A DNA stretch of 62,909 bases from assembly GCA_004299085.1 (NCBI GenBank), contig SCQV01000205.1, positions 1 through 62,909 of the forward strand, in the 5' to 3' direction. The notes below the pieces were generated by a model. The model saw only the letters and a program-made list of their open reading frames with translations, was not told the origin of the DNA and did not search any database. Numbering within the stretch: position 1 is the stretch's first letter; each line of letters begins with the position of its first letter. A program made the translations under genes and the position numbers. The DNA is from Chitinophagaceae bacterium (GTDB lineage Bacteria > Bacteroidota > Bacteroidia > Chitinophagales > Chitinophagaceae). Positions 40,143 through 61,139 of this stretch are shown one piece after another.

Positions 40143-40145
40143 GGA

Positions 40146-40176
40146 AAAATGGGCACATTGGATGGTGTGCCATTTT
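40146..40176 (+). terminator. Candidate intrinsic (bidirectional-looking) terminator after pirin
   Basis: aaaatgg(g)cac / gtgccatttt forms a 10-bp stem with one bulged G and a 10-nt loop. It has an A-tract 5' and a T-tract 3', and begins 4 nt after the stop codon. Confidence 0.45.
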
Positions 40177-40513
40177 AATAGAATATGGATTTGTAGTGAA
40201 ATGTACATATTAGCCAGTATAAAAAAACCATAGCAATTAAAGTAAGTAGGGCTTGCTCAACAACTCAATGAATATTTTAGAACGGGATTTTTACCCGAAT
40301 AGCTGGATATTTTGTATCCTTTGAAGTAAAGAATTTAATATTTGGACATATTCTAACTCCTTTTAAAACAAAGGTAACAGGGAGTGAAAAATTTGATGCA
40401 TGGGGTTCGAGCATTTTCTTATAAAGACCTTGCATCAAGGTTAGTATAAATAGACTGAAACTCTTAGTGGGATTCATTTTATTATTATTGAGCAAACCCT
40501 ATTTAAACTTTTA

Positions 40514-40797
40514 TTGAGCGTCGTGGCCATCTCAATTGTAGGGATTACCAATATTGTTTTCAACAAAATAGTAGGCTCCCTCAAAAATATAACGAGTAGC
40601 CCCGGTATGGAAACGGGATTAAAGAAATGGCGCAGTGGTATTGAAGCTGTTATATCCAATTTCAAAAGAAGATTTGGAATGTTTCGCCGTGATTGGAAAG
40701 AATTGAACCATTTTAAAGCAAAAGTATTCTGAAAGCCATAGCTTACAACATCAGAGTAATGACGGCCTTGGTATTGGAACGGCTCGAATTAGAATAA
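40514..40797 (+). mobile_element. C-terminal relic of an IS4/IS5-superfamily DDE transposase gene, frameshifted
   Basis: ...KKWRSGIEAVISNFKRRFGMFRRDWKELNHFKAKVF then a shift to KAIAYNIRVMTALVLERLELE*. The R-x-x-IE-x-x-I-x-x-x-K-R-x-x-G...W-K-G...N motif is the typical transposase tail. Weaker remnants (RDFYPNS...) may extend back to about 40270. Confidence 0.5.
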
Positions 40798-41134
40798 AGC
40801 GACCGGTACCTAAATTGGGTAGATGTGAATGTGCCCATGAACTAAAAGGATAGTGCATTTCTATGAATAATGCCAAATAAAAAGAGAAAGACGCATCAAA
40901 AAATGTTCGTGACATTATCTTTTTATTTAAAATATTGATTTAGAAATAATTTTTATTGTTAAAGCGACGAAAACTAAAATTTTTTAACCGACTTTATAGA
41001 CAGACACTAAGTAGCGGCTTATTCCCAAAAAGATTAAACACCTTCATCTCTTCAATTCGTCTCTTTTATAAAAAGTTGTCTTTTCAAAACATAATCAAAA
41101 ACATGAATCAACGATTTTAAGGGCAGACACATGT

Positions 41135-41809
41135 TTAAAACTTTCCATATCTTTTATAGGCTTCAACCGGGTCAACACCTTTTAAAATAGCCGTTCTTAC
41201 CCTATTTTCTGTTTGTAATACTTTTTCTGTTTGGTTAATTACTTCTTCCACTATCGCCAATGGTATAATGACAATCCCATCTCTGTCTGCTATTACATAA
41301 TCCCCCGTATGGATTTTAACTTTGCCAATGACAATAGTGCCAGCAAAGGAGGTGGCTTCCCATTTTGTTACTACATCCACGGGAGTAAGATATTTACAAA
41401 AGACCGGAAAATTAATCTTCTCAATAAATGCAGTATCGCGGCACCCGCCATCTACTATATATCCCCTAACCTCTTTATGAAGTAGCGTTTCAGCAGACAA
41501 TTCACCCATGTGAGCGACGGTGGTATCATGTGGTTGGCAAATAATTACATGACCACTTGGGGCCCTTGACAAAAGTTCACACCACTTTAATAAGCTATCA
41601 TATTCACTGATGGTATTGTTCCTTTTACCTTCAATTGTAAAGACTGTCCCTGTAATTTTATGATGAATATTTAATGGATTAATATTATACGGCAGCACCT
41701 GATCAGGATAACCCATAGCACGAAGCACATCATATACAGCTCCGGTGTAACATTGCTGCAATCTATCAGAGAAGGATAGTTTTGTATTTGGTTTATTATC
41801 TGCGTCCAT
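41135..41809 (-). CDS. RraA-family protein (class II HMG/CHA-aldolase-like)
   Basis: RraA-like pattern: GHVIICQ...MGELSAETLLHKEVRGYIVDGGCRDT...FPVFCK...GDYVIADRDGIVIIP. Confidence 0.8.
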   Translation of the reverse strand: MDADNKPNTKLSFSDRLQQCYTGAVYDVLRAMGYPDQVLPYNINPLNIHHKITGTVFTIEGKRNNTISEYDSLLKWCELLSRAPSGHVIICQPHDTTVAHMGELSAETLLHKEVRGYIVDGGCRDTAFIEKINFPVFCKYLTPVDVVTKWEATSFAGTIVIGKVKIHTGDYVIADRDGIVIIPLAIVEEVINQTEKVLQTENRVRTAILKGVDPVEAYKRYGKF

Positions 41810-41815
41810 TTTTAG

Positions 41816-44800
41816 TCATTTCAAAATATTATTCTTGAAAAAATGGTCAAGGGCATCCGCGTCAAGGTACTCGTCATCAAGGGTGTCGTAAATTGCATCT
41901 AAGGCAACGGGAACTTCAGTATCAGTCGCGATTAATTCAAGTACCTTTTCCCTTTCTTTAGAAGAAGAAACAGGTACGCTAAAATTCCAATACTTACCAT
42001 CAATATCCTTTTCTGACCCGCTGATCAACCAAAGACCAATTTTATCTTTGATCTGATTCCATTGACTTTTCAGATCACTTCCTTCCGTTAATAAAACTGA
42101 AGTATTTAGAGCGAGCTTAAGATTAGAAGCCCCCACATTTCTTATAAATTCCATAGCATCTGCTAAATTATAAGGAGGAATGCCAAACCTTACCCGTAGA
42201 TTTAAATGGATATCATATTTTTCTGAAATTTTACAAAGGGAAATAAAAGTCTCTTTAAAAGAATTCCAAGTCTGCTCTTGTGTAAAATTATTTTCAGGGA
42301 AACGGTGTAGTGGTAATATTATTTCTTTTGCCTGAAAAAGGGACATTTTGCTTAATACATCTTCAATCTTAGCCATACTATTTGCATAAGCATCATGGAG
42401 ATTATTAATCAATCGCAACTTTGGGAAAAAATCAACTCCCGAAGTTAAATCAACTATGATTTTTAATTTCTGCCTTTTAATCCATCCGGATTCTTGTTTC
42501 AAGACGGATTCTTCTTTTTGAGCCAGATACTTCCAATCTAAAACTACCCCATCAAAATGCTCAAAGAAAGTTGGTCTGCGCAATATCTCATTTTTTACCA
42601 TTCGGATACTTCTTAGCGGTAAGTAACGATCTCTGGGCCGTTGGGGAGGGATTGCGGACCCGATTTGTACTATATTCTGCTCTTGAACGTAGACTTCGAA
42701 GATACGAATATCACCCCCGGCCATGGTATTTGGACCGCTAATGCCTATTTCTTTTTTATCTATTCCTTCGGGCAAATATCCAATAGCTGTTTTTTCGGAT
42801 TGATCCAACGTTACTTCTTTTATTGATCCAATTTCTCCACAATGAGAAGATATATTAAATGGATACTCATTCCATGAATTATTGGCGATTCCTAGTAGAT
42901 ACTTCCCATCTCCTTTGCAACAGGTAATCAGGCTTAGTGAATCTCCCACATCAAATAATTTTTGATTACTAAATTCTTCATCTAATATGGCATGTACGTG
43001 GTTTAAAATTGGGAAAGGATTGGGCAACGGGTTATCAATTTCACTTTTCATATTTTGGCCGGATGTAATGATATTCATGTTGCTGATACCAAAAGCGCTG
43101 GCTAAAACAGTTACCCTGCCATTACCATATCCTGTTCGTACTGCGAGGGGAGTATTACCAGTTGTCGCCAGAATATCTGCATTTTCGGGGAAAGACAAGG
43201 AATAATAATTAAATGATACTTTTTCCGTGAATTTTTTGTTCCCTACAAAAACGGGGTGGTCTGTTTTTATATTCTTGTTTGCAGAATTGGTTTTTATATT
43301 GCCAAGGCCTTCAGGAAATTTACTTAAATTACCAGATGTAATAATTAGATGACCTCCATTTTTAATATAATTTTGCAGCTTATTATAAATCTCTTTGCCT
43401 CCGGAAAGTTCTCCTGCAATAACTAAGATTGGATACTGAGCCAAAATCCAATCTTCTGCATCACTGAGGACACAATCTGCAATATCGCCATATGGTGTAC
43501 GACAAATAAATCCCGACTCATCATGATAATAAGAAGAATTCTGATAGCCGGGATAAATCATGTTTAATACTGCATCCGTCAGGTAATCACCGGGATCATA
43601 AGGCAAATTTCCCCAGACCCTATATACATCTGAAGAGTATAGATGCCTTGGAAATGTCCAGCCTGCAAAGAAATCCAACATAAGTGCAACCGGAGTGTAC
43701 ATAACTCCTGGCTGGCCATTCTTTTTGACCCATTTTACAGCATTTTGCTGTATATGACCAATTGGGGTGAGTGCATCATTATTGGCCTTTGCCCTGGAAA
43801 AATCTTTGATCTTTTTTTCGTAAAACCACCCTTGGTCAAAACCAACCATCATGGAATTATACAAAATATGGCTATACATTAGTCTTTTCATCAGGCTCAA
43901 ACTTGTTCCCTTGCCAGGCCCATGATCTTCCCCGCTTGAGTTATAAGATTTATATCCCCAGCGATTCCACCCCGATGAATTACCAAACCAAGGAACACCA
44001 TACTGCTTCCCTGCTCCGCGAATAAAGGAGTAATACACTTGTCCATTAGGAAGCGCTTCCCCCGTTTCAGCCCCGATCAAGTTATAAACCCCTTCTTTTA
44101 GAAAATAATGTCCGAAGTTAAGTGAAACAAGAGTCGTTATTTTATTTCTCAGATCATCAGTTAGTTGTTCAAAGTGCTGTTGAAAATTAAAGTATTGATG
44201 AACCCTATTAGCCGATCTGGGATACATTTCAATTGCATAACCACCAATATATCGTCCATCCTGTTCTCCATTATCCATCCCCAGCCAATGATCTCCCAAC
44301 TTTGAACTAAATAACTCAGATAGCTTTGGAGAAAGTTTAAATTGTTCCCATGATCCAAGTCCACTGGTGCCAGGAATATATTTTAATTTTGTTAGTCCGG
44401 ATCCTGGAACATATCCCCATATATCGAATAAAAAAAGTCCTCTGCGTTGGAATTCGTCAATTAAAGCTGGAACATTATCAGCAGATAGGAACCCATGATT
44501 GGGCCAAATCACATTTCCCAGATGAAAAACTTTTGTATAAATATCCAAGTCCTTTGAATAATTTACGATTTTATTACCTTCAATTTGAAAACTTCTTAAT
44601 GTCATGAAATTTGTTTCATTGCTAAATGTATTCCAGTCTGGCGGCTTAACAAATCGGCGTTTATCGTCTGGATACTCACGTGGGTTTAGAAGATGAATGT
44701 TTATGTAATGCTTAGTAGAATTGGCGCTTTCTTGTTTGTTAATTGTAAGTAATTTATCTCCCACAGTGATATTGGGCAATTTGTTTACATATCCAATAGG

Positions 44801-44848
44801 GGCAAGAATGAGCAAATTCTTGATAGCAGTTCTTCTATTTATAGCCAT
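41816..44848 (-). CDS. 1010-aa multidomain protein with a Tat-like signal, an unassigned GH-like N-terminal region, a GATase1/beta-galactosidase-trimerisation-like middle and a C-terminal xylose-isomerase-like TIM barrel
   Basis: The N-terminus MAINRRTAIKNLLILAP is twin-arginine-like. GDHWLGMDNGEQDGRY and IGAETGEALP segments are present. YPILVIAGELSGG...GGHLIITSG is class-I amidotransferase-like. The last roughly 270 aa (KLKIIVDLTSG...HLNLRV...LKLALNTS) resemble the AP_endonuc_2 / sugar-phosphate isomerase TIM fold. Confidence 0.5.
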   Translation of the reverse strand: MAINRRTAIKNLLILAPIGYVNKLPNITVGDKLLTINKQESANSTKHYINIHLLNPREYPDDKRRFVKPPDWNTFSNETNFMTLRSFQIEGNKIVNYSKDLDIYTKVFHLGNVIWPNHGFLSADNVPALIDEFQRRGLFLFDIWGYVPGSGLTKLKYIPGTSGLGSWEQFKLSPKLSELFSSKLGDHWLGMDNGEQDGRYIGGYAIEMYPRSANRVHQYFNFQQHFEQLTDDLRNKITTLVSLNFGHYFLKEGVYNLIGAETGEALPNGQVYYSFIRGAGKQYGVPWFGNSSGWNRWGYKSYNSSGEDHGPGKGTSLSLMKRLMYSHILYNSMMVGFDQGWFYEKKIKDFSRAKANNDALTPIGHIQQNAVKWVKKNGQPGVMYTPVALMLDFFAGWTFPRHLYSSDVYRVWGNLPYDPGDYLTDAVLNMIYPGYQNSSYYHDESGFICRTPYGDIADCVLSDAEDWILAQYPILVIAGELSGGKEIYNKLQNYIKNGGHLIITSGNLSKFPEGLGNIKTNSANKNIKTDHPVFVGNKKFTEKVSFNYYSLSFPENADILATTGNTPLAVRTGYGNGRVTVLASAFGISNMNIITSGQNMKSEIDNPLPNPFPILNHVHAILDEEFSNQKLFDVGDSLSLITCCKGDGKYLLGIANNSWNEYPFNISSHCGEIGSIKEVTLDQSEKTAIGYLPEGIDKKEIGISGPNTMAGGDIRIFEVYVQEQNIVQIGSAIPPQRPRDRYLPLRSIRMVKNEILRRPTFFEHFDGVVLDWKYLAQKEESVLKQESGWIKRQKLKIIVDLTSGVDFFPKLRLINNLHDAYANSMAKIEDVLSKMSLFQAKEIILPLHRFPENNFTQEQTWNSFKETFISLCKISEKYDIHLNLRVRFGIPPYNLADAMEFIRNVGASNLKLALNTSVLLTEGSDLKSQWNQIKDKIGLWLISGSEKDIDGKYWNFSVPVSSSKEREKVLELIATDTEVPVALDAIYDTLDDEYLDADALDHFFKNNILK

Positions 44849-44893
44849 AATAAAAATTTTTGAAAATGAATTAGCGAGAGAACTTAATGTATT

Positions 44894-45397
44894 TTATAGG
44901 TCAATATTTTCAGGAGAACGATATTTTACTGTTTGCAAATGCTCGCAATATAAAACCAACTCTCCATCATTTTTAAACACTTCATAAGCTGCGCAATATA
45001 GCCCCATGTCTTTATATTTTGGTTGCTTGCTCAAGTCAGTTTTAATAGTATAAATAGTATCACCTATAAAAACAGGCTTGATGAATCGTAGTTTATCATA
45101 GCCATAGCTAAATGCATTCACACAGTTAGTCGCCACCAAACCTAACCCAACACTGAAAACAAATGCCCCGGCCACTAATCTTTTCCCAAATACCCCTTCA
45201 TTCTTTGCAAAAATCTCGTCAGCTACATAAGGGTGCATATCTAAAACGAGAGCATTGAATTGCATACTCTCTCCTTCACTGATAGTACGCCGTATAGAGC
45301 GTATTTTCTTTCCTATTACAATGTCCTCGTAAAACCAGTTTTCGGCATTCCATATAGGAATATCTTTGTGCTTCGTTGGATCAGGGTTCGGATTCAT
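44894..45397 (-). CDS. MaoC-family (hot-dog fold) dehydratase/hydratase
   Basis: 167 aa with the MaoC pattern D...HPYV.DE.FAK...FGKRLV.G. Confidence 0.8.
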
Positions 45398-45406
45398 ATA
45401 AAATAT

Positions 45407-46489
45407 CTATTTGTTACATTGAATGATTAAGTTACTTATTTTTACTGCACCATCATTACTTGATTTATAGGCAGCTTCCACACACGCCATAGTATAAATA
45501 CAGTCCTCTACAGAATTATCGGGTGTATTTACAGGGTCCTCCGCAGCCTTCATCATCTCTCCCATAGAGCCTATAAAGGCATGCGGGAACCAACTTCCTT
45601 CAATTTCCTTTGTTTTCCATTCTGCTTCTTTTCCCTCTTTTATAATGGTATATTCAAATAAGTCTGGAACACCCGTAGGATAATTCATCAATACACCCAT
45701 CTTTATTCTAATCGCCCCTTTTGTTCCTTCAAATTTGATATATGATTGTTGATGATGTAAACCAAATTGATGACAATGATTTGTCAAAATATCAGCTCTC
45801 ACGAGTTCGCCATAATCCATGATAATATTACTTCGTACAGATGCTAAATCCTGCATCATCGGATGCTTTGTTGTTTTAGCGTATATACCGATAGGATTAC
45901 CTAAGAAAGAGCGTATCAAGTCAATATAATGAATGCTATGATAAGGTATTTCTACACGTGGCGCCTCGAAAAGGAAACTCCATAAATTCCATGGCGTAAA
46001 GACATTAACATTCACTTCTATATCGCAAAGCTCTCCAATGTTTCCCTTTTCTATCATTTCTCTTGCCATTGTAATAAAAGGTGCATATCTCAGTTGGAAA
46101 TTAACCCCTGCAATCATCTTCTTATCTCGTGTTATTTGAAGGATTTGTTTTGCCTGCTCATAATTTTCTCCCATCGGTTTTTGCATCAACACTATGGCAT
46201 GACCAGGCAACTTCTGTAATAAACATGTAAGCACATTTCCGGGTACTGCTAAATCAAACACTACCTTGGATGGAGCATCCTCCAGCAACTGATTTATGCT
46301 TTCATATACCTTGGGCACAGCATATTTTTCTGCGGTAGCCTTTGCCTTTTCAATATTGATATCGTAAATACCAATTACATTAAAATTAGCCAGCCTGTAA
46401 GCCGGTAGGTGAGCATCATTAACTATTCCCCCCGCGCCTATAATTATTATAGGTGCTGTATTTTTAGGTATTGAAGAATGAGGTTTCAT
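45407..46489 (-). CDS. Gfo/Idh/MocA-family oxidoreductase
   Basis: N-terminal Rossmann IIIIGAGGIVNDAHLPAY and the EKP-like MQKPM motif. Confidence 0.85.
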   Translation of the reverse strand: MKPHSSIPKNTAPIIIIGAGGIVNDAHLPAYRLANFNVIGIYDINIEKAKATAEKYAVPKVYESINQLLEDAPSKVVFDLAVPGNVLTCLLQKLPGHAIVLMQKPMGENYEQAKQILQITRDKKMIAGVNFQLRYAPFITMAREMIEKGNIGELCDIEVNVNVFTPWNLWSFLFEAPRVEIPYHSIHYIDLIRSFLGNPIGIYAKTTKHPMMQDLASVRSNIIMDYGELVRADILTNHCHQFGLHHQQSYIKFEGTKGAIRIKMGVLMNYPTGVPDLFEYTIIKEGKEAEWKTKEIEGSWFPHAFIGSMGEMMKAAEDPVNTPDNSVEDCIYTMACVEAAYKSSNDGAVKISNLIIQCNK

Positions 46490-46529
46490 ATCTGATTATT
46501 TTATATCAACATTTCTAATCATTGCGCTT

Positions 46530-47585
46530 TTATGCCCCAGTCAGTGCACCAACATAATTGCCGTATGTTAAAAAGAGTACTGACAATATTAATACCGTTA
46601 TCGCAAGAGCTAGCGACCATTTTGTCCGTATTTTTACACCTTTCCATTCTTTTAATATTAATCCTATTACACTACTAAAAAGTACCAACATAATCATATG
46701 AATCGCCCAACTGCTAAATTCGTATGGGCCCATTCTTGTATTACCCATTCCATAGAAAAAGAATTGTGAATACCATAACAGACCGGTTATAAATGCCAAT
46801 ACATAATTGAATGGTAATATGGTTCTATTCTTGACTTTTTTCAATGTTTTATATTCTCCAAAAGTCTTTTGTTTGAGATGTAAATAGATACAGTAAATAG
46901 CCGTTGTGAGGAAAGCGCCAGTATTAGTAAAAATATAGATAACATTCCCTTGAAACTGGCCGGCGCCATATTTTGCAGCTACGTCTGCAATAGGCTGTCC
47001 CTGAGCCAAAGCAATTCCGTATACCGCAGAGAGTATTCCTGCTAATAAGCATAGAGGCAATCCTTTCCTAAGTGAAAACAAAGAAGACGAATTTTCTTTT
47101 ATTTGCAGATCTTTCTCCTTAAATCGACCTGCGAAGCCACAGATAGCAATACCCAATGCCCCGATAGCGATGCCCATCATCAGCCAACCTGATCCCGCTT
47201 TAGTCAATATCTTTTCTAATTGTCCGTTCACTAATGGTGGAATTATAGTGCCTAATACACAGGATAGCCCTACAGATATAGCGTATGTTAAGGAGAATCC
47301 TACATATTTGATAGCCAGCCCGAAGGCTGTACCTCCGATGCCATAAGCTGCACCGAGTATAAAAGCCTCATACATGGCATCCACGGGTGCTTCTTTCAAT
47401 ACTTCTCCTAAATGAGGTATGGTAATCCATGCCCCGATAATCGGTAATAGGAACCAGCAGAACACAGCCTGAGCCAGCCAGTACGTCTGCCAGGACCACG
47501 CCTGGGTTTTTTCCTGCGGAGTGTAACACACTGAAGCACTTCCGGCACCAACAGCATGAAATGAGACACCAGTTATAACACTCAT
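46530..47585 (-). CDS. rhaT: RhaT-family sugar:H+ symporter (L-rhamnose/proton symporter-like)
   Basis: 10-TM DMT-type protein. The N-terminus G..FH..GA.S...Y.P..K...WSW.T.W and the C-terminus W...M...VL...IGL.LKEW align with E. coli RhaT as recalled. Confidence 0.8.
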   Translation of the reverse strand: MSVITGVSFHAVGAGSASVCYTPQEKTQAWSWQTYWLAQAVFCWFLLPIIGAWITIPHLGEVLKEAPVDAMYEAFILGAAYGIGGTAFGLAIKYVGFSLTYAISVGLSCVLGTIIPPLVNGQLEKILTKAGSGWLMMGIAIGALGIAICGFAGRFKEKDLQIKENSSSLFSLRKGLPLCLLAGILSAVYGIALAQGQPIADVAAKYGAGQFQGNVIYIFTNTGAFLTTAIYCIYLHLKQKTFGEYKTLKKVKNRTILPFNYVLAFITGLLWYSQFFFYGMGNTRMGPYEFSSWAIHMIMLVLFSSVIGLILKEWKGVKIRTKWSLALAITVLILSVLFLTYGNYVGALTGA

Positions 47586-48448
47586 GATAAATTTGACAGG
47601 TTATAAAATGAATCTGCATTTTTATAAAGAACCTTTTCCTGTTCTTCCATAGCCAATTCTTCTGCTACAATTTCTTGGTAAGCCAACCAGGCTTTTTCAT
47701 AAGGTCCAGCCAACAATGCTATCGGCCAATCACCTCCACAAAAACAGCGGCTTGTTCCAAATACCTCAATCGCGTACATTAGGTAGGGTTTCAGATCGTC
47801 TTTTGCCCATCTGTCTCCGTCGGATGCACTTGATCCCAAGCCTGATATCTTAGCATACACATTATCGTGTAATGAAATCTCTTTCATCAATTCTCCCCAT
47901 CGGCCAAATCTCTCTTTAGAGGCTATAGGTGGCTGATTTAAATGATCCAGAACAATTCTCAATGCAGGCAATCTTTCTGCCACCTGTATAGCTGTCTCTA
48001 AGTGTGCGGTATTAATTCCTACCACATCATAAGGGATCTTATAAGAAGCTAAAATATTCAAGCTTGCCATAACGCTGTCTTGTAAAAGCCATTGAGGGCT
48101 TGCTTCATTATGAATAAGATGACGACAACCTTTAAAATAGAGATTATCCAGATACTTCTCATTGAGTGCTTTTACGGTCGCTTCTGGATCTATTAAAGGC
48201 AGCCAACCTACCACTCCTTTTATCCAATCAGTTTTAGATGCAGTTGTCAGCATAATATCCGTATCATCAAAGTTATTAGCAGCTTGTACCAATATACCCT
48301 GTGTAACATTAGCTTTAGAGATAAGAGGGCTTAACTGTTCGATGGAATAGGTTTTATTTAGAATACTGGTATCATTTTTCAACCAGGAGTATTCTGCCTT
48401 TTCCAAATTCCAGACATGAATATGAGTATCAATAATACCTTTTATCAT
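47582..48448 (-). CDS. Amidohydrolase_2-family protein (sugar-lactonase / LigI-like class)
   Basis: IIDTHIHVW metal/active-site start and DHL...P. Size is about 288 aa. It overlaps rhaT by 4 nt. Confidence 0.75.
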   Translation of the reverse strand: MIKGIIDTHIHVWNLEKAEYSWLKNDTSILNKTYSIEQLSPLISKANVTQGILVQAANNFDDTDIMLTTASKTDWIKGVVGWLPLIDPEATVKALNEKYLDNLYFKGCRHLIHNEASPQWLLQDSVMASLNILASYKIPYDVVGINTAHLETAIQVAERLPALRIVLDHLNQPPIASKERFGRWGELMKEISLHDNVYAKISGLGSSASDGDRWAKDDLKPYLMYAIEVFGTSRCFCGGDWPIALLAGPYEKAWLAYQEIVAEELAMEEQEKVLYKNADSFYNLSNLS

Positions 48449-48472
48449 AAGTTAAATATTACACTATGATTA

Positions 48473-49612
48473 TTATAAATCAAATTCTCTCTTTATTGAT
48501 TCCGTATGCTCGCCTAATCTGGGTGCTCCCATGGGGGATTTCAATATTTGTCCGTCCACCCTTATGGGACATCGAGTTGTTTTCAAAAATTGATTCCCTA
48601 TAGAAACTTCCTGCTCCATTTCCAGTACTTTATATCCATCTTCTTGTACCAGCGCATCATAGTTTAATACCTCTGCACACCAAATATCAGCCGGCCCTAA
48701 TATGTCAAGCCATTCCGTAACTGATTTATTATTCAAATAATCCTGTAAGATCGTTTTGATTTTATCTCTCTTATTGAACCAGTCTGTTGAATCAGTAAAG
48801 GAGAGCAATGCATCACAGCCTAATAATTTTCCAAGCTGAGGGATATTTCCCATGGATAATGCCAGGTAACCGCTATTGGTTTTATAAATACCATAAGGTG
48901 CTGCAATATAAGCATGCCCGTTATTTATGCAGCTTCGACGGGGCAACATATTACCGTCGTTATAAAAGCATGTTAAGACCTCAAACTGAAAATCCAGCAG
49001 GCTTTCTAACATGCTTACTTCTATCAGGGCGCCCTTTCCCGAAGTAAGACGTTCATAAATAGCAGTCAATATACCTTGGACGAGATGTGTTCCAGCTAAT
49101 ATATCTGCGACTGCAACACCCATTGGGGTTGGATTATCCTGATCATTACCACTCAACCACGTAATGCCAGAAACGGCCTGAAGTAATAAATCCTGCCCAG
49201 GCTTGTCTTTCCATTCTCCTTCATCCCCATAGCCATTGACATACGCATAAATTAATCGGGGATTAAGTTCTTTTACTGATTCATAAGAAAGTCCAATCCG
49301 CTCCATAACCCCTGGGCGAAAATTGTGTATCAGGATATCTGCGTGTTTTATCAGCTTTCTAACCGCATTCAAATCATTGGCATTTTTCAGGTCTGCCTGA
49401 AAGCTTTCTTTATTTCTATTGATAGCATGAAAAATAGTGGACTCTCCTTTCACCATTGTATCACTTACGTATAATTCCCGGCAAATATCGCCGGTGACCG
49501 GACGTTCAATCTTAATAACCCTCGCGCCCATGTCTGCAAGTCTCAAACTTGCAGAAGGGGCCGATAAAAACTGGCTAAAATCTAGCACTAATATATCTTC
49601 CAAAAGTTTCAT
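48473..49612 (-). CDS. Family III (CaiB/BaiF) CoA-transferase
   Basis: ILVLDFSQFLSAPSASLRLADMGARVIKIERP...GD is the hallmark N-terminus. An Asp-containing GQDLL segment is present. Confidence 0.85.
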   Translation of the reverse strand: MKLLEDILVLDFSQFLSAPSASLRLADMGARVIKIERPVTGDICRELYVSDTMVKGESTIFHAINRNKESFQADLKNANDLNAVRKLIKHADILIHNFRPGVMERIGLSYESVKELNPRLIYAYVNGYGDEGEWKDKPGQDLLLQAVSGITWLSGNDQDNPTPMGVAVADILAGTHLVQGILTAIYERLTSGKGALIEVSMLESLLDFQFEVLTCFYNDGNMLPRRSCINNGHAYIAAPYGIYKTNSGYLALSMGNIPQLGKLLGCDALLSFTDSTDWFNKRDKIKTILQDYLNNKSVTEWLDILGPADIWCAEVLNYDALVQEDGYKVLEMEQEVSIGNQFLKTTRCPIRVDGQILKSPMGAPRLGEHTESIKREFDL

Positions 49613-49617
49613 TTTCT

Positions 49618-50754
49618 CTATTTTACTATCTCTCTTTTAAATTCGTCTATATGTTCTCCTAATTTGGGCGCAGGTTTGTCAGATAAAAAATACTGCTTAT
49701 TGTAACGGATGGGACAACGGGTTGTCTTTATCTTTTTATTGCCTGCTAAAAATTCCTGCTCAATATTCAATGCTCGATATGTTGAGGATTGTATTAATTG
49801 ATTCCAGTCCGAAACAGGCATAATCCACAAATCGTGTTTTTGAACCTTTTTCAGCCATCCTGCCGTGGTATCGGTTAGAAGAAAATTAGATAGAATCGCC
49901 TTGATTTCATCCCTTTTTTTAAAAGATTCTTCCTCGGTAAATTTATTCAATTCTATACATTCAATTGCTGCATTCAGTTTCTTCAGTGGCATCATTGCTA
50001 TGGCGATATAACCGTCTGACGTTTTATAAATGCCATAAGGGGCACCTAGTAAAGGGTGTCCATTGCTAATCTCTGACCTTTTAGGTTGCTTCTTGCTTTG
50101 GAAATAAGTCGTGAAATATTCAAACTGAAAATCTATTAAAGATTCCAATAGGCTTAATTCCAGCAATGCGCCTTTCCCAGTTTTATGACGCCTAATGAGT
50201 GCAGCGAGGATCGCCTGTACAGTTTGGTTGCCACATAAATAATCACTCATCGCAAGTCCGAATGGTATTGGGTGATCCTTTGCATTTCCTGTAGTATAGG
50301 TTAGACCCGATATGGATTGTATTAATAAATCCTGCCCAGGCTTGTGGCTCCATGGCCCCTTTTTTCCGTAACCGGATATTTCTGCATAAATAATGCGCGG
50401 GTTTATTTTTTGTACGGAGGCATAATCCAATCCAAAAGACGCCATTATCCCAGGACGGAAATTATGGGTTATTACATCAGCGTGGACAATCAATTGTCTT
50501 ACAAACCTCAAATCATCGGGATCTTTCAAATTGGCCGTAATGCTTTTCTTATTCCTATTGATCGTATGAAATAAAAGCGAGCTATCATCTACCCATAAAT
50601 TTTCTATAGATAGTCTGCGTCCTGCATCTCCTCCTTTGGGACGCTCCACCTTGATAACTTCAGCTCCAAAATCTGCAAGGCGTAATCCAGCACAAGGACC
50701 AGATAAATATTGGCTAAATTCTAAAATTACTATTCCTTTTAATGGCAATTCCAT
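49618..50754 (-). CDS. Family III (CaiB/BaiF) CoA-transferase, a paralog of the previous gene
   Basis: IVILEFSQYLSGPCAGLRLADFGAEVIKVERP...GD. It is separated from its paralog by 5 nt. Confidence 0.85.
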   Translation of the reverse strand: MELPLKGIVILEFSQYLSGPCAGLRLADFGAEVIKVERPKGGDAGRRLSIENLWVDDSSLLFHTINRNKKSITANLKDPDDLRFVRQLIVHADVITHNFRPGIMASFGLDYASVQKINPRIIYAEISGYGKKGPWSHKPGQDLLIQSISGLTYTTGNAKDHPIPFGLAMSDYLCGNQTVQAILAALIRRHKTGKGALLELSLLESLIDFQFEYFTTYFQSKKQPKRSEISNGHPLLGAPYGIYKTSDGYIAIAMMPLKKLNAAIECIELNKFTEEESFKKRDEIKAILSNFLLTDTTAGWLKKVQKHDLWIMPVSDWNQLIQSSTYRALNIEQEFLAGNKKIKTTRCPIRYNKQYFLSDKPAPKLGEHIDEFKREIVK

Positions 50755-50771
50755 ACAGTTATTTTTATCTC

Positions 50772-51920
50772 CTATTTTCTTCTGCTACTCCTATATAATT
50801 CATTCATATTCCTTAATAGTTGTTCAGCATTTCCTGTCTCAAGCAAATGTTCCTGTAATAAAGTACCGGCTCGATCTTGGAAGGAAAGATAACCGTTATA
50901 CCGTGGTCTCATAAATGCTCTGTCTATAGTGGGTAAGGTGTTCATGAAAAAATTATTGCAATAGTAATTTGCTGTTTCACTTTCCCATGCAGCACGATGC
51001 CCCGGTTGTCCCCCGTTTTCTACGTACAAAGTAGATTGGATATCTGGAGAAGCGACCCATGATGCAAATCGGATAGACCAGGTTTTGTTCTGTGTAAACG
51101 AGGATAAAGATAGTCCTGTTCCCCCTAATGTGCTGCACAGCCGCTTGCCTTCCTTAAATTGTACGACATCAGTGTAAGTCAGTAAATGGGGCGCATATCC
51201 TTTTCGTGAATAGTTTGAATATCCATAAGAAAAAGGACAATACCAATAGTCATCTGTAGATGACATTAACTCTGCTATTGTAATAGGATTATAGGTAAAC
51301 ATCCTTTTATTGACTATGCTCCAAAGTTCCTTCATGGTATCAATAGCCTTAATGCCTGTTTCATCATCTATCATCTTTTCCTCGTCTGCGAAAGGCATAT
51401 TTCCATGAGCTGTGCAGAACATATAAAAATTCATCAGCAGGTCAATGGGTATAGAGGGTACGGCTAGCTTACCTCTTTTAGCTAAATTTATTACTTCCTG
51501 CCATGTATCTGGAACAGGGGCATTATTCTTCTCAAGTAAATCTGAACGATAACTGGCCACAGGAGTAGCTGCATCAATTGCCAATGCCCATTGGTGCCCT
51601 TCATAATAATAACTCTGGTGCGAAGGTCCAACAGAGCTTTTCATTTGATCTGATAAATATTCTTCAGATAATAAATTATCTAAAGGCACTATGCACCCTG
51701 TAGCTGCTGCGCAGCCTACCCAAGGGTGATCAATGATTAGCAAGTCATATAGTTGAGTTAGTTTTTCAATAGGATAATCCGCAAACTCCTGGAGTGTACG
51801 TTTTGTCCATATTATTTCCACTTCGGGGTGCAATTCAGAAAACCTTTGTGAAGTAGCCAACAATGGTGTAATACCCCGGCTATGCCCCCAGGTTATTCCT
51901 TTCAAAATAACCTTACTCAT
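50772..51920 (-). CDS. Periplasmic-binding-protein (solute-binding, family 1-like) fold protein without a signal peptide
   Basis: 382 aa starting [16 protein letters not shown], with no hydrophobic leader or lipobox. The ...[10 protein letters not shown]...[11 protein letters not shown]... pattern resembles SBP_bac_1-type proteins. No ABC permease or ATPase gene occurs anywhere in the window. Confidence 0.55.
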
Positions 51921-52356
51921 GTTTTGACTTTTTCTCTACTAACAATAGATGTTCACATACCATTACCAGTTTATCATGCTGATTAAATGTTTCTATCAAC
52001 TCTCTAACTATGCCATAGCCAGGCTTTTTATGATCTTTTTTATCTTTGATGGTAATAGTTACCTTGATAGTATCCCCAATAAATACCGGCTGCAAGAACC
52101 GCAGCCTTTCATATCCATAGGTCATACTCACTTCGTTAATACTATTCGCCGTCATTCCTACGGCTATACTAAAAATTAGCGTACCATGAGCTATCCTCTG
52201 TTTGAACGGCTGTTTTTTACACCATTCCGCATCCACATGATGTGGGAAAAAGTCACCGGTTTGGCCAGCATGGATTATAATATCAGTTTCGGTAATGGTA
52301 CGACCATGAGATTTACGAACGTTCCCAATAATATATTGTTCAAAATATGTTTCCAT
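51913..52356 (-). CDS. MaoC-family (hot-dog fold) dehydratase/hydratase
   Basis: 147 aa with [12 protein letters not shown]...RIAHG. It overlaps the next gene by 8 nt. Confidence 0.8.
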
Positions 52357-52395
52357 TAAAGATTCTTATTATTGTGTGGTACAAAAGACTATGTC

Positions 52396-54921
52396 CTATG
52401 GCCTTAAATATATTATTTCACCAGGATAGGTTTTAATACTTATGATTTTTTCAGTCATTTTTCTCTTTTCATTATTAGTAATTAAATAGCCTTCATTACC
52501 CCATGGCATAATAAGCCTTAGTATGTTCCCTTTTTCACTTTTAATCTTTATTTCCTTCACGTTTCCATCTTTTAAACTGGCACTTACCAAAAAAGCACCG
52601 GCTGTTCTTAAGTCATAAAAGGAAGCGTTTTTATTTTTAGGCCAATTGGGAAATAAACGAATAATCCCGTCATAGCTCTGGATTAGACATTCATTGATCA
52701 CAACCGGGAGCGCAAAATTTTCGAACCATATACCCATGTGGGCCATAAAATCAAAGGTAGTAAGATCACTATATCTGCCTCCTGATTGCATTACCATGTC
52801 AGTTGCCGTGCCATCTGGCAATAAACAATATTTTATTTGCCGTTTGAACTTATATAGATTTAACATTCCAATTCGCGCCGCTTGCAGATTTCTAAATACA
52901 AGATCATTTCCGCCTTCGTTTTGAGAATTTTTATACGTATTCTTTAACATCTGAAGAGTAGTCAGATCCGAACCCAGACCATAATCATCTCCTGGGAAGA
53001 CCGGAGTTAAAGGTAGTGGTACATTATAAATGACGTTTGCATTTGCTCCTGGTGCTCCCACCAGAACTTTTCCGTATTTCTCTGATTGAGCAGTAGGATA
53101 TTTAGGATAGTGGTCCAGTATATCCCGAATATTATTTAATAAATATTTCTCCTTCTCTTGAGTGCCTAATACTCTTGTAGCCTCCTGAAAGGCTTTGAAA
53201 ATAAATTTAGTAAGAGCCAAATCAATAATACAATCATAGTCGTACTTAAAACCGGGCTGTAATCCATAAAGCTCAGGAGGAATAGTAGGGAATATATGAA
53301 AATCATTATCACCCCATCTTGGCAACCCGCTTGCAACATGCCGCTTCATATAAGCCACTAAGAAAGTAACCGCTTCCTTTATCGGAACATAAGCACGATT
53401 CTTAAGAAAATTAGTATCTCCTGAATATAAATAGTGCAACCACAACTCTTGTACGGCCCAAGGTGTTTCACAAATCTCCCAACCCCAGGTAGGAACAGGA
53501 TAAGGGTTCATAGTCATCTTAACAGGATAGGAAGAGTGAGGAAAATAAGCACCGGGAAGATTATAATATTCTCTTGCCCATTCCTTACTTGAACCCAATA
53601 GGAAATTTATTAAATTTACATACGGTAAGTCTTTTTCCAAGTGATTACTTGAAAACGTCATCCAAAAGGGTTGTTCAATATTGTAATTCATATGATAATC
53701 TCCGTGCCAGGCAGTGCCAATTTTGTCATAGCTCCAATTTGCAAAGAGCCCCGGGCATGTTGCTTCTGCTTTTGCTGCGCAATTAAAAAAATAAAGGTTG
53801 TGGTACCAAACACCCTCAAGAAATGAATCACTAAGGACAACTCCTGATTTGTTCCAATAATCTTTCCAGGTATTTATATTACTATCCAATTTCAAGGTTA
53901 AGTCTTGCATCTTAGGCGTAATTATTGATATTGCCTTAGTGGGTACGGTAGAATCTGCCCCATATTCGAGAGACACCGTACCAATGAATTTGTCTACTTG
54001 TGATAGAGCCGATTCCAGAGGGCTCATTTTTATTTTATCCCCGTACAAGTCCATCCGCATTTTGGATGTTTGTATCTTATCGTTTATTGGCAGGTTAACA
54101 GTGACGCTCAAACGAAAGGCACGATCTTTGGGATCTCCCTTCCCCATATTATACTCTTTCGGTTCCTCGGCTGGCAGGGTTTGTCTAAAAGAAAGTGTTC
54201 CTCTTTTTAAATTTTCATTGACGCTATATCTGGGAAATTCTTTTGGGGTAGATGGATCTGGAATGATTTTTATTCTATTGAAGATATTAGTATGCAGGCT
54301 TCCGTCAGGATTAACCAGCCACATCCATAGCTTATCTTTTTTTAAATCAACAAATATTTTTAAGAAAACTTTATTTTTTTGAGCTGTTCTCATTTCAATT
54401 GTACAAACCCCGGTAGCAATGTCCAGTTTATATCCTACCATATCAACGCTTCGTCTATCAAAACCCAATAATACGGAGCCGCATGGGAATGGCCTCGGAT
54501 AAGGCTTATTATAGTTTTCTCCTGCCATTTTAACATAATTAGAAAACCAGGTGTCTTCCGATAAAGAAGAAAATGTATCAGGAATTGCCTTGACCTTATT
54601 GAACACATAGTTAAAAGTGCCTATTTCTTTACGATGGTTTTCTGCAATTCGAATATCCCAAACGTTATTATCTCCAAAGCGAAGCACTATAGCATCTGGA
54701 CGCGTGGTAACTACAACTCCCATAGCACCATTACCAAGTAAAGCCCCCTCAAAAAAGTTGGGTGCTGGACCATTAAAAGTTATTGGGAAAAGTTTTGCCT
54801 GATTAAAGGAGGAAAAGTTTTGGTCAATTTGTGCACTTACACAAGTTACCAAAAAGACTGTAAAAGTCAATATCCCCCAAATTGTCTTTTTTATCATTTT
54901 AATAAATAACATGACGAACAC
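52396..54921 (-). CDS. Secreted GH95-like (alpha-L-fucosidase/galactosidase-type six-hairpin) glycoside hydrolase, divergent
   Basis: Signal peptide (likely start ATG 54897). N-terminal ALLGNGAMGVVV resembles the GNG..G motif of the GH95 N-domain. WHGDYHMNYNIEQPFW resembles the W..dyt.N.N.qm.YW segment. The assignment is tentative. Confidence 0.45.
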   Translation of the reverse strand: MFVMLFIKMIKKTIWGILTFTVFLVTCVSAQIDQNFSSFNQAKLFPITFNGPAPNFFEGALLGNGAMGVVVTTRPDAIVLRFGDNNVWDIRIAENHRKEIGTFNYVFNKVKAIPDTFSSLSEDTWFSNYVKMAGENYNKPYPRPFPCGSVLLGFDRRSVDMVGYKLDIATGVCTIEMRTAQKNKVFLKIFVDLKKDKLWMWLVNPDGSLHTNIFNRIKIIPDPSTPKEFPRYSVNENLKRGTLSFRQTLPAEEPKEYNMGKGDPKDRAFRLSVTVNLPINDKIQTSKMRMDLYGDKIKMSPLESALSQVDKFIGTVSLEYGADSTVPTKAISIITPKMQDLTLKLDSNINTWKDYWNKSGVVLSDSFLEGVWYHNLYFFNCAAKAEATCPGLFANWSYDKIGTAWHGDYHMNYNIEQPFWMTFSSNHLEKDLPYVNLINFLLGSSKEWAREYYNLPGAYFPHSSYPVKMTMNPYPVPTWGWEICETPWAVQELWLHYLYSGDTNFLKNRAYVPIKEAVTFLVAYMKRHVASGLPRWGDNDFHIFPTIPPELYGLQPGFKYDYDCIIDLALTKFIFKAFQEATRVLGTQEKEKYLLNNIRDILDHYPKYPTAQSEKYGKVLVGAPGANANVIYNVPLPLTPVFPGDDYGLGSDLTTLQMLKNTYKNSQNEGGNDLVFRNLQAARIGMLNLYKFKRQIKYCLLPDGTATDMVMQSGGRYSDLTTFDFMAHMGIWFENFALPVVINECLIQSYDGIIRLFPNWPKNKNASFYDLRTAGAFLVSASLKDGNVKEIKIKSEKGNILRLIMPWGNEGYLITNNEKRKMTEKIISIKTYPGEIIYLRP

Positions 54922-55122
54922 ACATATATCTATTTGGTGAGTAAAAAATATGTTTTAAATTTATATTTGTAAAAAGAAGTAAGAAAAAGGTTTAAGACGG
55001 TGATATTTATAATAATTGATTAAAAAACCGTATAATATAGAATCCAAAATGATTATCCCGATTACTGTTTTGTCATTAGTCCCAACTAACTCAGAGGCCG
55101 GAATGCCCCCCGAGTTACCTAC

Positions 55123-56640
55123 TTAATAGCCATGGTTCTGTACCAACTTAGGATTAGCGTCTATTTCGCTCTGTGAGAAAGGAAACAAATAATTTTTATT
55201 AGGATCAAATTGGCGATGAGTTCCACCTGGGTCCACTAATGTAGGTATATAAGTTTGGGCTATTTTCCAACGTTTAATATCTAAATATCTATCCCCTTCA
55301 AGGCCTAATTCAACCCTCCTTTCCTCCCTAATTGCCTCTCTCATTTGTCCTTGGTTTAATCCTTGTGGCAGTGGTGGCATATTAACACTTGGTCTAGCAC
55401 GTACCATATTGATAGCTGCATAAACTGAGGCATCTGGGCCGACTGCTTCGTTTTCGGCTTCCGCATACATTAACAAGACTCCAGCATATCTTAGTAAGAC
55501 CCAATCCTGGTCACTTTTAGTTGAATAATCATACGGGTAGGCATCTAAATTTACTCCTTTTAACGCTTCATAACCTGTCACAGAAGAGCTACCGCCGCTG
55601 CCATTGAGGTAAACCGAGTCTCCTGCAGAATTAACAAGAGCTTGACTAACTCTAGCCACTGTATATGCAAGCCTTGGATCCCGATTCTTGAAAGGATGAT
55701 TAGGATCATAAAGTGGTGAGGTGGAGATCGGTTGACCGTCTGTACATTCAAAGGCGTTGACAAACTCTTGTCTCGGATTAATCAGTCCCCACCATCCGAT
55801 CTCTATATCTTGATCCGAATAGTAATTGGGATTAAGAAATTTACTTGAGAAAATAATTTCAGGATTATTTATTTGTTCTGATTTTAAAAATAGGCTTTGA
55901 TAATTGTCACAAAGATGAAAGACTCCACTCTGAATGATTTCATTTGCCACTTCAGCAGCTTTTGAGTATTGTTCATTATATAATAAGACTTTAGCCTTAA
56001 GAGCCAAGGCGGAACCTTTCACTGCATAACCGGAATATTGGGTATTAGGAAGATTGGCAATTGCAAAGTCAAGATCTTTATATATTTGTGTGTCAACCTC
56101 AGCCACTGTACTTTGCTTTATCCTAGCCTCTTCAACCGTGACCGGTGCCGTATATAATGGTACTCCTCCGTAGAAATTAGTAAGAGTGAAATAAGATAGC
56201 GCTCTTAAAAATCGAACTTGTGCTTCATACTGGGTTTTTGTTTCGTCACTAATGGGTGTCCTTCCGATATTTGCTAGGAAAAAGTTACACGAACTAATCC
56301 CATTATAGCAATCATCATAAATACTTGAAACAAGGCCTCCTGAGGTTGGTGTAATAACTCCTGCAGCAAGCGTTTGCAAAGAACTTGACCCTTGACTCTG
56401 CTGAGAATAGTCTGCATCACCCCCCAAGATGGACCACATCATTTGTTGGTAATCAAATGTAGAACTGGTAAGTCGATTATATACGCCGGCAAGGGCCATA
56501 TCCGCGTCTTGTTGAGTCTGCCAGAATGTTTGACTAGATAATTGATCTAGTGGTTCTTTATTTAAGAATTTACTACATGAAGTCAGAATTAACACCATGA
56601 CTCCAACCGAAAAAATCTTAATACCTATATCCTTTATCAT
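55123..56640 (-). CDS. RagB/SusD-family outer-membrane lipoprotein
   Basis: Lipobox LTSC and TPR-like SusD patterns (FLRALSYFTLTNFYGGVPL; C-terminal ...NPKLVQNHGY). Confidence 0.9.
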   Translation of the reverse strand: MIKDIGIKIFSVGVMVLILTSCSKFLNKEPLDQLSSQTFWQTQQDADMALAGVYNRLTSSTFDYQQMMWSILGGDADYSQQSQGSSSLQTLAAGVITPTSGGLVSSIYDDCYNGISSCNFFLANIGRTPISDETKTQYEAQVRFLRALSYFTLTNFYGGVPLYTAPVTVEEARIKQSTVAEVDTQIYKDLDFAIANLPNTQYSGYAVKGSALALKAKVLLYNEQYSKAAEVANEIIQSGVFHLCDNYQSLFLKSEQINNPEIIFSSKFLNPNYYSDQDIEIGWWGLINPRQEFVNAFECTDGQPISTSPLYDPNHPFKNRDPRLAYTVARVSQALVNSAGDSVYLNGSGGSSSVTGYEALKGVNLDAYPYDYSTKSDQDWVLLRYAGVLLMYAEAENEAVGPDASVYAAINMVRARPSVNMPPLPQGLNQGQMREAIREERRVELGLEGDRYLDIKRWKIAQTYIPTLVDPGGTHRQFDPNKNYLFPFSQSEIDANPKLVQNHGY

Positions 56641-56668
56641 TTTAAAGAATTTTAATAGTTAATATTGA

Positions 56669-59716: not shown

Positions 59717-59755
59717 AGTTGTAAAGTTTAAAATGCATAATAAAGAATCTAACGT

Positions 59756-59763
59756 CAAAATTA
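59756..59763 (-). promoter_or_regulatory. Candidate Bacteroidota -7 promoter box (TAnnTTTG) for the susC-like operon
   Basis: The minus strand reads TAATTTTG about 40 nt upstream of ATG 59716. No clear -33 TTTG was seen at ideal spacing. Confidence 0.3.
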
Positions 59764-61114: not shown

Positions 61115-61139
61115 TTTCTTTCACAATTGAGAAGGAGAA

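Follow-up and report, generated by a model that had tools for sequence, protein, structure and literature searches.

A probable oxidative sugar operon within a polysaccharide utilization locus

We analyzed a stretch of DNA of 62,909 nucleotides (hereafter, the window) that makes up the whole of contig C126 (SCQV01000205.1; 62.9 kb) in the 4.98-Mb, 95% complete assembly of a Bacteroidota bacterium of the family Chitinophagaceae. The subject of this analysis is a minus-strand operon that runs from position 59758 down to 41135 and encodes, in order, SusC, SusD, a GH95-like glycosidase, MaoC-A, a solute-binding protein (SBP)-fold protein, two coenzyme A (CoA)-transferases, a lactonase, a RhaT-family symporter, a Gfo/Idh/MocA oxidoreductase (Gfo), MaoC-B, a 1010-residue protein and an RraA-family protein (Table 1). 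Intergenic gaps between SusC and RraA range from -8 to 45 bp, with a single exception of 201 bp, and because they are so short the whole row is probably one transcript. The adjacent SusC/SusD pair, accompanied by a glycosidase and a regulator, identifies the locus as a Bacteroidota polysaccharide utilization locus (PUL). An earlier reading of the same DNA (the original prediction) had singled out Gfo, the lactonase and the RraA-like protein as a dehydrogenase-lactonase-aldolase series without a recognizable dehydratase; these three genes do lie at the coordinates it gave, on the minus strand, and Pfam profiles confirm the family of each.

Table 1. Features of the operon and its flanks, in order of decreasing position (profile matches in bits; HMM, hidden Markov model).
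Feature	Position	Strand	Basis
AraC-family regulator, divergent from operon	60239..61114	+	HTH_18 62 bits, Cupin_2
SusC-type TonB-dependent transporter	56669..59758	-	Plug 70 bits, CarbopepD_reg_2 69 bits
SusD-family glycan-binding lipoprotein	55123..56640	-	SusD_RagB 149 bits
Divergent GH95-like glycosidase	52396..54921	-	Glyco_hydro_95_cat 100 bits; own family HMM 1091 bits
MaoC-A, hot-dog (R)-hydratase/dehydratase, canonical Asp...His motif	51913..52356	-	MaoC_dehydratas 90 bits
Cytoplasmic SBP-fold protein, no signal peptide	50772..51920	-	SBP_bac_1 28 bits; N-terminus read
Family III CoA-transferase 1, Bacteroidota-specific paralogue	49618..50754	-	CoA_transf_3 (PF02515) 331 bits
Family III CoA-transferase 2	48473..49612	-	CoA_transf_3 (PF02515) 312 bits
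cog3618 sugar lactonase, fuconolactonase-like	47582..48448	-	Amidohydro_2 135 bits
RhaT-family sugar:H+ symporter	46530..47585	-	PF06379 176 bits
Gfo/Idh/MocA oxidoreductase, putative sugar 1-dehydrogenase	45407..46489	-	GFO_IDH_MocA (Pfam) N-terminal 45 bits, C-terminal 36 bits
MaoC-B, variant hot-dog protein	44894..45397	-	MaoC_dehydratas 50 bits
1010-aa protein, twin-arginine-like N-terminus, no confident family	41816..44848	-	No Pfam/NCBIfam match
RraA-family class II aldolase, putative 2-keto-3-deoxy-6-deoxyhexonate (L-KDF/L-KDR) aldolase	41135..41809	-	PF03737 100 bits (cut-off 24.5)
Gene-free stretch of ~1 kb downstream of RraA; in relatives holds split UxaA-type dehydratase	40143..41134	.	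No open reading frame >=105 aa

The enzymes flanking the missing step resemble those of deoxy-sugar oxidation

Non-phosphorylating routes for L-fucose and L-rhamnose proceed through a sugar 1-dehydrogenase, a cog3618 lactonase, and dehydration to a 2-keto-3-deoxy acid, and they end in an aldol cleavage or in an oxidation followed by a hydrolysis (PMC11199699). The sole NCBIfam match of the window's lactonase is NF052480, L-fucono-1,5-lactonase, at 146.7 bits (under the equivalog cut-off of 400). Its nearest relative in the PDB is likewise an L-fucono-1,5-lactonase (4DLF, BmulJ_04915; E 4e-23), and the alignment of the two shows the HxH, His and Asp motifs. The original prediction had called for a comparison with LigI and L-fucono/rhamnono-lactonases; the solved structures that match the lactonase at E<=1e-4 are only 4DLF and 6UVZ and include no LigI chain. 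The RhaT symporter scores 308 bits on the NCBIfam RhaT model, below its cut-off of 468.

The RraA-like protein scores 71.9 bits on TIGR02798 ligK_PcmE (cut-off 304.5) and 75 bits on NF006731 (cut-off 179). Its orthologues are remarkably well conserved, with 57-70% identity from one phylum to another (Bacteroidota, Acidobacteriota, Verrucomicrobiota, Planctomycetota and Deinococcota). Twelve orthologues all keep three of its residues, Arg124, Asp125 and Glu201, whose counterparts in the HMG/CHA aldolase structure 3NOJ are R123, D124 and E199; in that Pseudomonas putida enzyme, Arg-123 is essential and Asp-124 and Glu-199 are metal ligands (PMC5065237). Judged by this alignment, the window's protein retains the Arg/Asp/Glu set that class II aldolase chemistry needs, and the loss of metal and Arg residues that could have spoken against an aldolase has not occurred.

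The GH95-like glycosidase belongs to an orthologue group found also in fucosidase-rich loci elsewhere, and its family HMM likewise matches L060, L062, L067 and L073 (L, C and G numbers denote loci, contigs and genomes). In the window's genome as a whole, 23 GH29-like and 10 GH95-like open reading frames match our own family HMMs at E<=1e-5, some of them weakly, and the bacterium appears to specialize in glycans rich in fucose. The proposal of an oxidative sugar route served by a RhaT-type importer is supported, both by the lactonase's nearest relative and by the fuconate dehydratases that neighbor RraA in other genomes (below). From these homologies we consider it highly probable that the operon encodes an oxidative deoxy-sugar route with a sugar 1-dehydrogenase, a lactonase, a 2-keto-3-deoxy-acid aldolase and a RhaT-type importer.

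Known dehydratase families are absent from the window

Genome-wide family searches placed no MR_MLE, UxaA/GarD (GD_AH), IlvD/Edd (ILVD_EDD) or DHDPS gene on contig C126; the genome's totals of 8, 1, 1 and 10, respectively, all fall on other contigs. The cluster on C126 accordingly contains neither a FucD-enolase-type nor a UxaA/GarD-type L-fuconate dehydratase, and the split UxaA-type dehydratase is missing from the window and from its genome in the same searches. We also looked for a SAF/GD_AH relic in the ~1-kb gap at 40143..41134, after RraA, and found none. The lack of a recognizable dehydratase therefore holds for the entire window: it is true in cis and not genome-wide, and it characterizes certain lineages only. 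The related claim that the (de)hydration step does not belong to a usual family stands for this locus in cis and fails as a property of the pathway, since most orthologous loci have a split UxaA- or FucD-type gene beside RraA. The only genes of the locus that could provide a dehydratase encode the MaoC proteins, which the original prediction named as sole candidates, together with the CoA-transferases.

A conserved CoA module accompanies the dehydrogenase and lactonase

MaoC-A reads TGDFFPHH at its active site, and the motif TGD[FY][FY]PHH is kept in 14 orthologues, preserving the Asp and the +5 His of the hydratase-2 motif G-D-x-N-P-x-H. MaoC-B departs from this Asp/His motif: its own, VLDMHPYV[AS]D, invariant in 17 orthologues (the window plus 16 loci), has Val in place of the +5 catalytic His and a His at +2 after the Asp. 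MaoC-B is seen only in RraA-bearing loci, usually adjoining RraA, and is absent from loci L101-L106 of the window's own family; as these relatives possess MaoC-A, a MaoC-A/MaoC-B heterodimer is not obligatory.

Both CoA-transferases are full-length, covering profile positions 1-366. Loci of Acidobacteria, Verrucomicrobia and Deinococcota have a single CoA-transferase; CoA-transferase 2 is its orthologue (54-57% identity), and CoA-transferase 1 is 43-47% identical to it. Asp171 is kept in both proteins and in >=90% of 31 aligned sequences; we take it, from its position, to be the catalytic Asp169 of Frc and CaiB. The SBP-fold protein always accompanies a CoA-transferase and MaoC-A.

The SBP-fold family has further members. 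A 4.9-kb contig of the window's genome carries a paralogue 39% identical to that of the operon (C615:3510-4700; L100), and similar matches (37-40%) occur in G355 and G394. Three Flavobacteriaceae loci (L070, L072 and L044) hold a variant of the CoA-type operon with a second SBP_bac_1 protein; two of them (L070 and L072) add ADH_zinc and SDR genes and are without a lactonase or MaoC-B. The order in this variant is IclR, RhaT, SBP, two CoA-transferases, SBP2, Gfo, ADH, SDR, MaoC-A and RraA.

Orthologous loci in five phyla carry either classical dehydratases, the CoA module or both

We fetched 80 RraA loci and annotated them by family HMMs built from the gene clusters of the loci themselves and named via Pfam; the following counts are over 81 loci including the window. 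The grouping of Gfo, the lactonase and RraA is not due to chance, since loci that combine orthologues of all three are found in five phyla (Acidobacteriota, Verrucomicrobiota, Deinococcota, Planctomycetota and Bacteroidota). GD_AH is present in 49/81 loci, with the split SAF + GD_AH pair usually directly after RraA, and a FucD-like MR_MLE gene in 37/81, its Acidobacteria copy scoring 349 bits to the L-fuconate dehydratase of Xanthomonas campestris. Other neighbors include GH29/GH95 fucosidases, sulfatases, RhaM mutarotases, SDR and FAH; in Pedobacter loci the RraA orthologue stands beside a fuconate dehydratase with no SDR or FAH nearby. L-fuconate dehydratases of the split UxaA/GarD type are already recognized (PMC6336799). 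A reading of the relatives' split UxaA as SuyAB, the sulfolactate sulfo-lyase, was set aside: seven Cys are conserved in the GD_AH large subunits, and the sulfo-lyase is reported to be without the four Cys conserved in dehydratases of the UxaA/GarD family (PMC6336799).

The CoA module (SBP-fold protein, CoA-transferase, MaoC-A and often MaoC-B) is found in 31 of the 81 loci. In eight Bacteroidota loci, the window among them, and two Verrucomicrobia loci, the module is present and the 10 kb to either side are free of FucD-like and GD_AH genes. RhaT is restricted to CoA-type loci (8/31 versus 0/50 of the others), while SSF importers (0/31 versus 16/50) and GH29 (1/31 versus 26/50) are concentrated in the others, though taxonomy confounds all of these counts. 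The clearest contrast comes from Verrucomicrobia, in which Gfo orthologues (479-592 bits on our own HMM) head Gfo-RraA-SAF-GDAH-lactonase operons. Two loci (L066 and L080) have exactly this order, whereas a third (L082) reads Gfo-SBP-MaoCA-RraA-CoAT-MaoCB-lactonase, and its genome contains no GD_AH gene and no FucD orthologue (the FucD query was positive in 5/5 control genomes). This pattern fits a non-orthologous displacement in which the CoA module took over from the dehydratase. FucD and split UxaA were also sought in the genomes of L060 and L072, and are absent from both.

In the RraA tree, CoA-type and dehydratase-type loci interleave, taxonomy is followed, and >=9 changes of label are required. 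Since the tree tracks taxonomy and not locus type, it suggests that RraA has one aldolase function, on the same kind of substrate, in both settings. On this comparative basis RraA is likely to be the pathway aldolase. Because it regularly neighbors fuconate dehydratases, the simplest reading is that it would act as the 2-keto-3-deoxy-fuconate (KDF) or 2-keto-3-deoxy-rhamnonate (KDR) aldolase of the published route 1, in place of DHDPS-type FucH. Our literature searches for RraA with fucose, or for RraA as a 2-keto-3-deoxy sugar-acid aldolase, found nothing. Overall, the window holds a real, conserved, PUL-linked oxidative deoxy-sugar operon.

Two further observations concern these loci. Another RraA subfamily, a deeply diverged one (206-248 bits on our own HMM), occurs as an RraA-SDR-MR_MLE triad on another contig of the window's genome (C561:6448-9112; L098) and also in L049, L067 and L090; the triad is present in the window's genome, Wocania and Snuella, and suggests that RraA-family aldolases serve more than one sugar-acid route. 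Separately, genes for a B12-binding protein and an MTTB methyltransferase lie just downstream of an Acidobacteria fucose/CoA island (L011, 13132-15245).

In the same family the CoA module can stand beside genes of a fucose route

A search for the SBP-fold protein in 301 genomes of the order recovered six complete genomes, all from the window's family. Their loci (L101-L106) share MaoC-A, the SBP-fold protein, two CoA-transferases, the lactonase, RhaT and Gfo, none has MaoC-B, and no RraA orthologue occurs anywhere in these genomes. Because the dehydrogenase and lactonase travel here with the CoA module and without RraA, the Gfo/lactonase/RraA trio is not obligatory: Gfo and the lactonase belong with the CoA module, and RraA and MaoC-B are an add-on in the window, L060 and L068. 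In one closed genome (G078), this shared core directly follows, on the same strand, a set of genes for the published route 3 that is complete but for a dehydratase. This set comprises a KDF-dehydrogenase-like SDR, a 2,4-diketo-3-deoxyrhamnonate hydrolase (8GSR, 270 bits), a GH29, RhaM, a second lactonase and an L-fucose dehydrogenase (4GKB, BmulJ_04919; 282 bits). There is no FucD orthologue in the G078 genome, and its only GD_AH gene sits in a UxaB-UxaA-UxaC-KdgK hexuronate cluster; FucD and split UxaA were likewise not found in G274 and G300. Because the dehydrogenase and the lactonase are both duplicated in G078, this arrangement suggests that a second sugar is handled by the Gfo/RhaT branch and that its product feeds into the fucose route.

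Among 121 genomes sampled from the family, 70 have an FAH hydrolase, 10 have FucD and 17 have the SBP-fold protein. We considered the presence or absence of RhaA isomerase as an indicator of L-rhamnose and found it uninformative, as PF06134 occurs in 1/121 of these genomes, module or not. Two SDR/FAH fucose clusters of relatives in the family (L112 in G404 and L118 in G311) have LutABC lactate-utilization genes inside them, a placement consistent with L-lactate being the product of route 3.

A proposed pathway and its alternatives

We propose that the locus is the cytoplasmic catabolic half of a PUL for a glycan rich in L-fucose-type 6-deoxy sugars. The sugar would be freed outside the cytoplasm by the GH95-like enzyme, perhaps also by the 1010-aa protein, and imported by the RhaT-family symporter. 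Gfo would oxidize C1 to give the lactone, which the fuconolactonase-like amidohydrolase would open to the aldonate. A family III CoA-transferase would then load CoA onto the aldonate, and MaoC-A would eliminate the 3-hydroxyl of the resulting (3R)-hydroxyacyl-CoA (aldonyl-CoA) to leave the enol of a 2-keto-3-deoxyacyl-CoA. A Fischer-projection derivation gives a 3R hydroxyl for both L-fuconate and L-rhamnonate, matching MaoC stereospecificity. CoA would be handed back to fresh substrate, as in the carnitine cycle of CaiB/CaiD, with the SBP-fold protein probably holding the polyol chain. The metal-dependent RraA aldolase would finally cleave the 2-keto-3-deoxy acid to pyruvate and lactaldehyde (route 1). 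In an alternative ending, the SDR and FAH enzymes encoded in an SDR-FAH-RhaM-lactonase cluster on contig C399 of the same genome would deliver pyruvate and lactate (route 3). What the sequences establish is which genes and families are present, that catalytic residues are conserved and that synteny extends across phyla; every substrate, the dehydration by way of CoA, and what the SBP-fold protein and MaoC-B do are putative.

CoA-dependent dehydration of the aldonate is our leading reading, and we put its probability at roughly 0.4-0.45. Activation of sugar acids by CoA was already raised in the original prediction; the gene displacement in Verrucomicrobia and the architecture of the locus speak for it as a hypothesis, and FucD or UxaA may instead be supplied in trans. 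Somewhat more tentatively still, the CoA-transferase, the MaoC hot-dog enzyme and the cytoplasmic sugar-binding-fold protein could together make up a mechanistically separate kind of aldonate dehydratase that feeds an RraA-family aldolase, in addition to the enolase-superfamily, UxaA/GarD and IlvD/Edd types. A bolder version starts from the coexistence of the module with FucD and UxaA in Acidobacteria: the module may handle an aldonate that classical enzymes cannot, such as L-rhamnonate (erythro at C2/C3), or an O-methylated or O-sulfated fuconate that would lose its 3-substituent by beta-elimination.

Several observations weigh against this reading. In the window's genome, C80 encodes a FucD orthologue (548 bits to the X. 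campestris enzyme) and C312 a fused 558-aa UxaA, and all genomes checked hold further MR_MLE paralogues of unassigned specificity. About 15 Acidobacteria loci, and those of Deinococcota, hold FucD and/or SAF + GD_AH in the operon of the CoA module itself: the Acidobacteria order is FAH, Gfo, FucD, RhaM and lactonase, then CoA-transferase, IclR, MaoC-A, SBP, MaoC-B, RraA, SAF and GD_AH, and in Deinococcota FucD is interleaved with the module. As FucD, split UxaA and the module are co-operonic in Acidobacteria, plain redundancy is unlikely and a distinct substrate or step is favored. Three family genomes (G281, G148 and G368) have the FAH hydrolase, no CoA module, no FucD and a single distant fused UxaA, so that the dehydratase gap is not specific to carriers of the module; three others (G402, G115 and G336) carry the module yet have a fused UxaA-type gene within the fucose cluster. 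We have therefore down-weighted the argument that the module fills a genome-level gap in L082, L060, L072, G078, G274 and G300. An RraA orthologue is found nowhere in the six family genomes that keep the rest of the operon. Finally, aldonyl-CoA is not reported in the literature we searched, and searches for a CoA-transferase or MaoC with fuconate found nothing.

The strongest alternative is an ordinary oxidative fucose route in which the aldonate is dehydrated in trans by the C80 FucD, the C312 fused UxaA or another MR_MLE enzyme, and the CoA module does a different job, for instance on a second intermediate or product. The off-contig FucD, UxaA and route-3 genes just described favor it, as do the shared operons of Acidobacteria and Deinococcota, the relatives that lack both the module and an in-cluster dehydratase, and the promiscuity of UxaA-family enzymes towards L-fuconate and D-altronate (PMC6336799). 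Against it, we were unable to devise a reaction that makes chemical sense for a CoA-transferase together with an (R)-hydratase on lactaldehyde, lactate, pyruvate or KDF. Action on lactaldehyde or lactate was set aside because no feasible (R)-hydratase reaction could be written; elimination of an alpha-hydroxyl needs radical chemistry. Neither FucD nor split UxaA is present in the genomes of L082, G078, G274 and G300, and the module is always accompanied by a dehydrogenase, lactonase and importer of its own, as expected if it acts on the aldonate of that sugar. We regard dehydration in trans as rather unlikely on balance.

A second alternative is that the RraA-like protein is not the pathway aldolase and is instead an oxaloacetate-decarboxylase-type enzyme or a hitch-hiking regulator, the route ending through KDF dehydrogenase and FAH hydrolase. 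The RraA-free MaoCA-SBP-CoAT-CoAT-lactonase-RhaT-Gfo core of the six complete family genomes agrees with this, as do the route-3 genes of the window's genome and the decarboxylase side activities of RraA-family proteins (PMC5065237). We nevertheless think it improbable that RraA is not the pathway aldolase, given the invariance of its catalytic Arg, Asp and Glu and the position of its orthologues beside a fuconate dehydratase in most of the 81 loci, across five phyla and often with no SDR or FAH near.

The remaining alternative, a Lig-like route on an aromatic-derived acid (a ring-cleavage product or pyrone) with LigC-, LigI- and LigK-type steps, shares its three Pfam families and its chemistry of hemiacetal oxidation, lactone hydrolysis and retro-aldol cleavage with the operon, and we reject it as very improbable, the specific likeness drawn by the original prediction being a Pfam-level coincidence, from the sub-cut-off ligK_PcmE score, the fuconolactonase as best structural match in place of LigI, the lack of any ring-cleavage dioxygenase or LigJ-type hydratase in a Pfam scan of every operon gene, and the context of SusC/D, GH95, RhaT and, in relatives, GH29 fucosidases.

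Remaining features and boundaries of the locus

The 1010-aa protein is a lineage-specific insertion between MaoC-B and RraA, seen there in the window's genome alone and not present in L060, L068 or L101-L106; pieces of it give weak matches only, to GLMA_2nd, GATase1_like and AP_endonuc_2 (a xylose-isomerase-like TIM barrel). Just downstream of RraA, a DDE_Tnp_1-like fragment lies at 40454-40732 on the plus strand, at a sub-threshold E of 0.016. At the other end, positions 61124-61393 on the minus strand hold the remnant of another SBP-fold gene (59 bits on our own HMM), adjoining a DDE_Tnp_ISAZ013 transposase (61970-62584, plus strand) at the contig end. Both ends of the locus may have been trimmed by mobile elements. 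A scan of 40300-60290 returned promoter-like counts equal to the shuffled expectation under a promoter model ill-suited to Bacteroidota, and terminator-like sites slightly above it (20 versus 13.1 expected, sd 3.9).

Implications and comparison with known systems

Oxidative (non-phosphorylative) sugar pathways are not known to require coenzyme A. Annotation of genomes for fucose, rhamnose and fucoidan use treats the four known families of sugar-acid dehydratase as a complete set; the KEGG-based pathway calls of PMC13668718, for example, rely on those four families. If our reading is right, CoA-dependent dehydration and an RraA aldolase end would add two enzyme families to this scheme, and would alter the way in which Bacteroidota, Acidobacteria and Verrucomicrobia that consume fucose and rhamnose are recognized in soil and ocean metagenomes. 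The Bacteroidota version is of value for testing: it has no dehydratase in cis, it is carried by cultured isolates (Flavivirga amylovorans and Wocania arenilitoris) and by closed genomes, and the PUL around it gives a lead to the glycan from which the sugar comes.

The pathway is of a known kind, but two of its parts, the RraA-type aldolase and the CoA module, have not been described in the literature we searched. The order of chemistry in the locus is that of non-phosphorylating fucose/rhamnose route 1 (Veillonella ratti and Campylobacter jejuni) and route 3 (X. campestris and Burkholderia multivorans); the lactonase is a relative of BmulJ_04915, and related loci carry FucD, L-fucose dehydrogenase and 2,4-diketo-3-deoxyrhamnonate hydrolase. 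Unlike in those routes, the dehydrogenase is of the Gfo/Idh/MocA and not the SDR type (the 4GKB-like SDR type is found in the relative L102), and the aldolase is of the RraA family and not DHDPS/NAL (FucH) or HpcH (LRA4), with SDR and FAH encoded only off-contig on C399. Neither a mutarotase nor a dehydratase from any known family is encoded in the locus; CoA-transferases, MaoC proteins and an SBP-fold protein are its additions. C. jejuni Cj0482/Cj0483 is a heteromeric L-fuconate dehydratase of the UxaA/GarD type; that of Paraburkholderia mimosarum (A19U_RS0100650/655) has its counterpart in the GD_AH-bearing orthologous loci (49/81) and none in the window or its genome.

The HMG/CHA aldolases (LigK/ProA; P. 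putida F1, PDB 3NOJ) share with the window's RraA the fold family, the Arg-Asp pair and the Glu metal ligand. The similarity to 3NOJ reaches a phmmer E of only 7e-10, Asn71, the proposed binder of the distal carboxylate of CHA, aligns with Thr, and the context here is one of sugar, not aromatic, metabolism. In the carnitine system CaiB/CaiD, as in FldA/FldBC and HadA, a hydroxy acid is activated as a thioester and dehydrated, and CoA is recycled from product to substrate. As in those systems, the locus encodes a family III CoA-transferase beside a hydratase/dehydratase; it differs from them in that the hydratase is a hot-dog (MaoC) protein and not a crotonase or radical enzyme, a polyhydroxy sugar acid would be the substrate, and an SBP-fold protein and a second CoA-transferase paralogue are present in addition.

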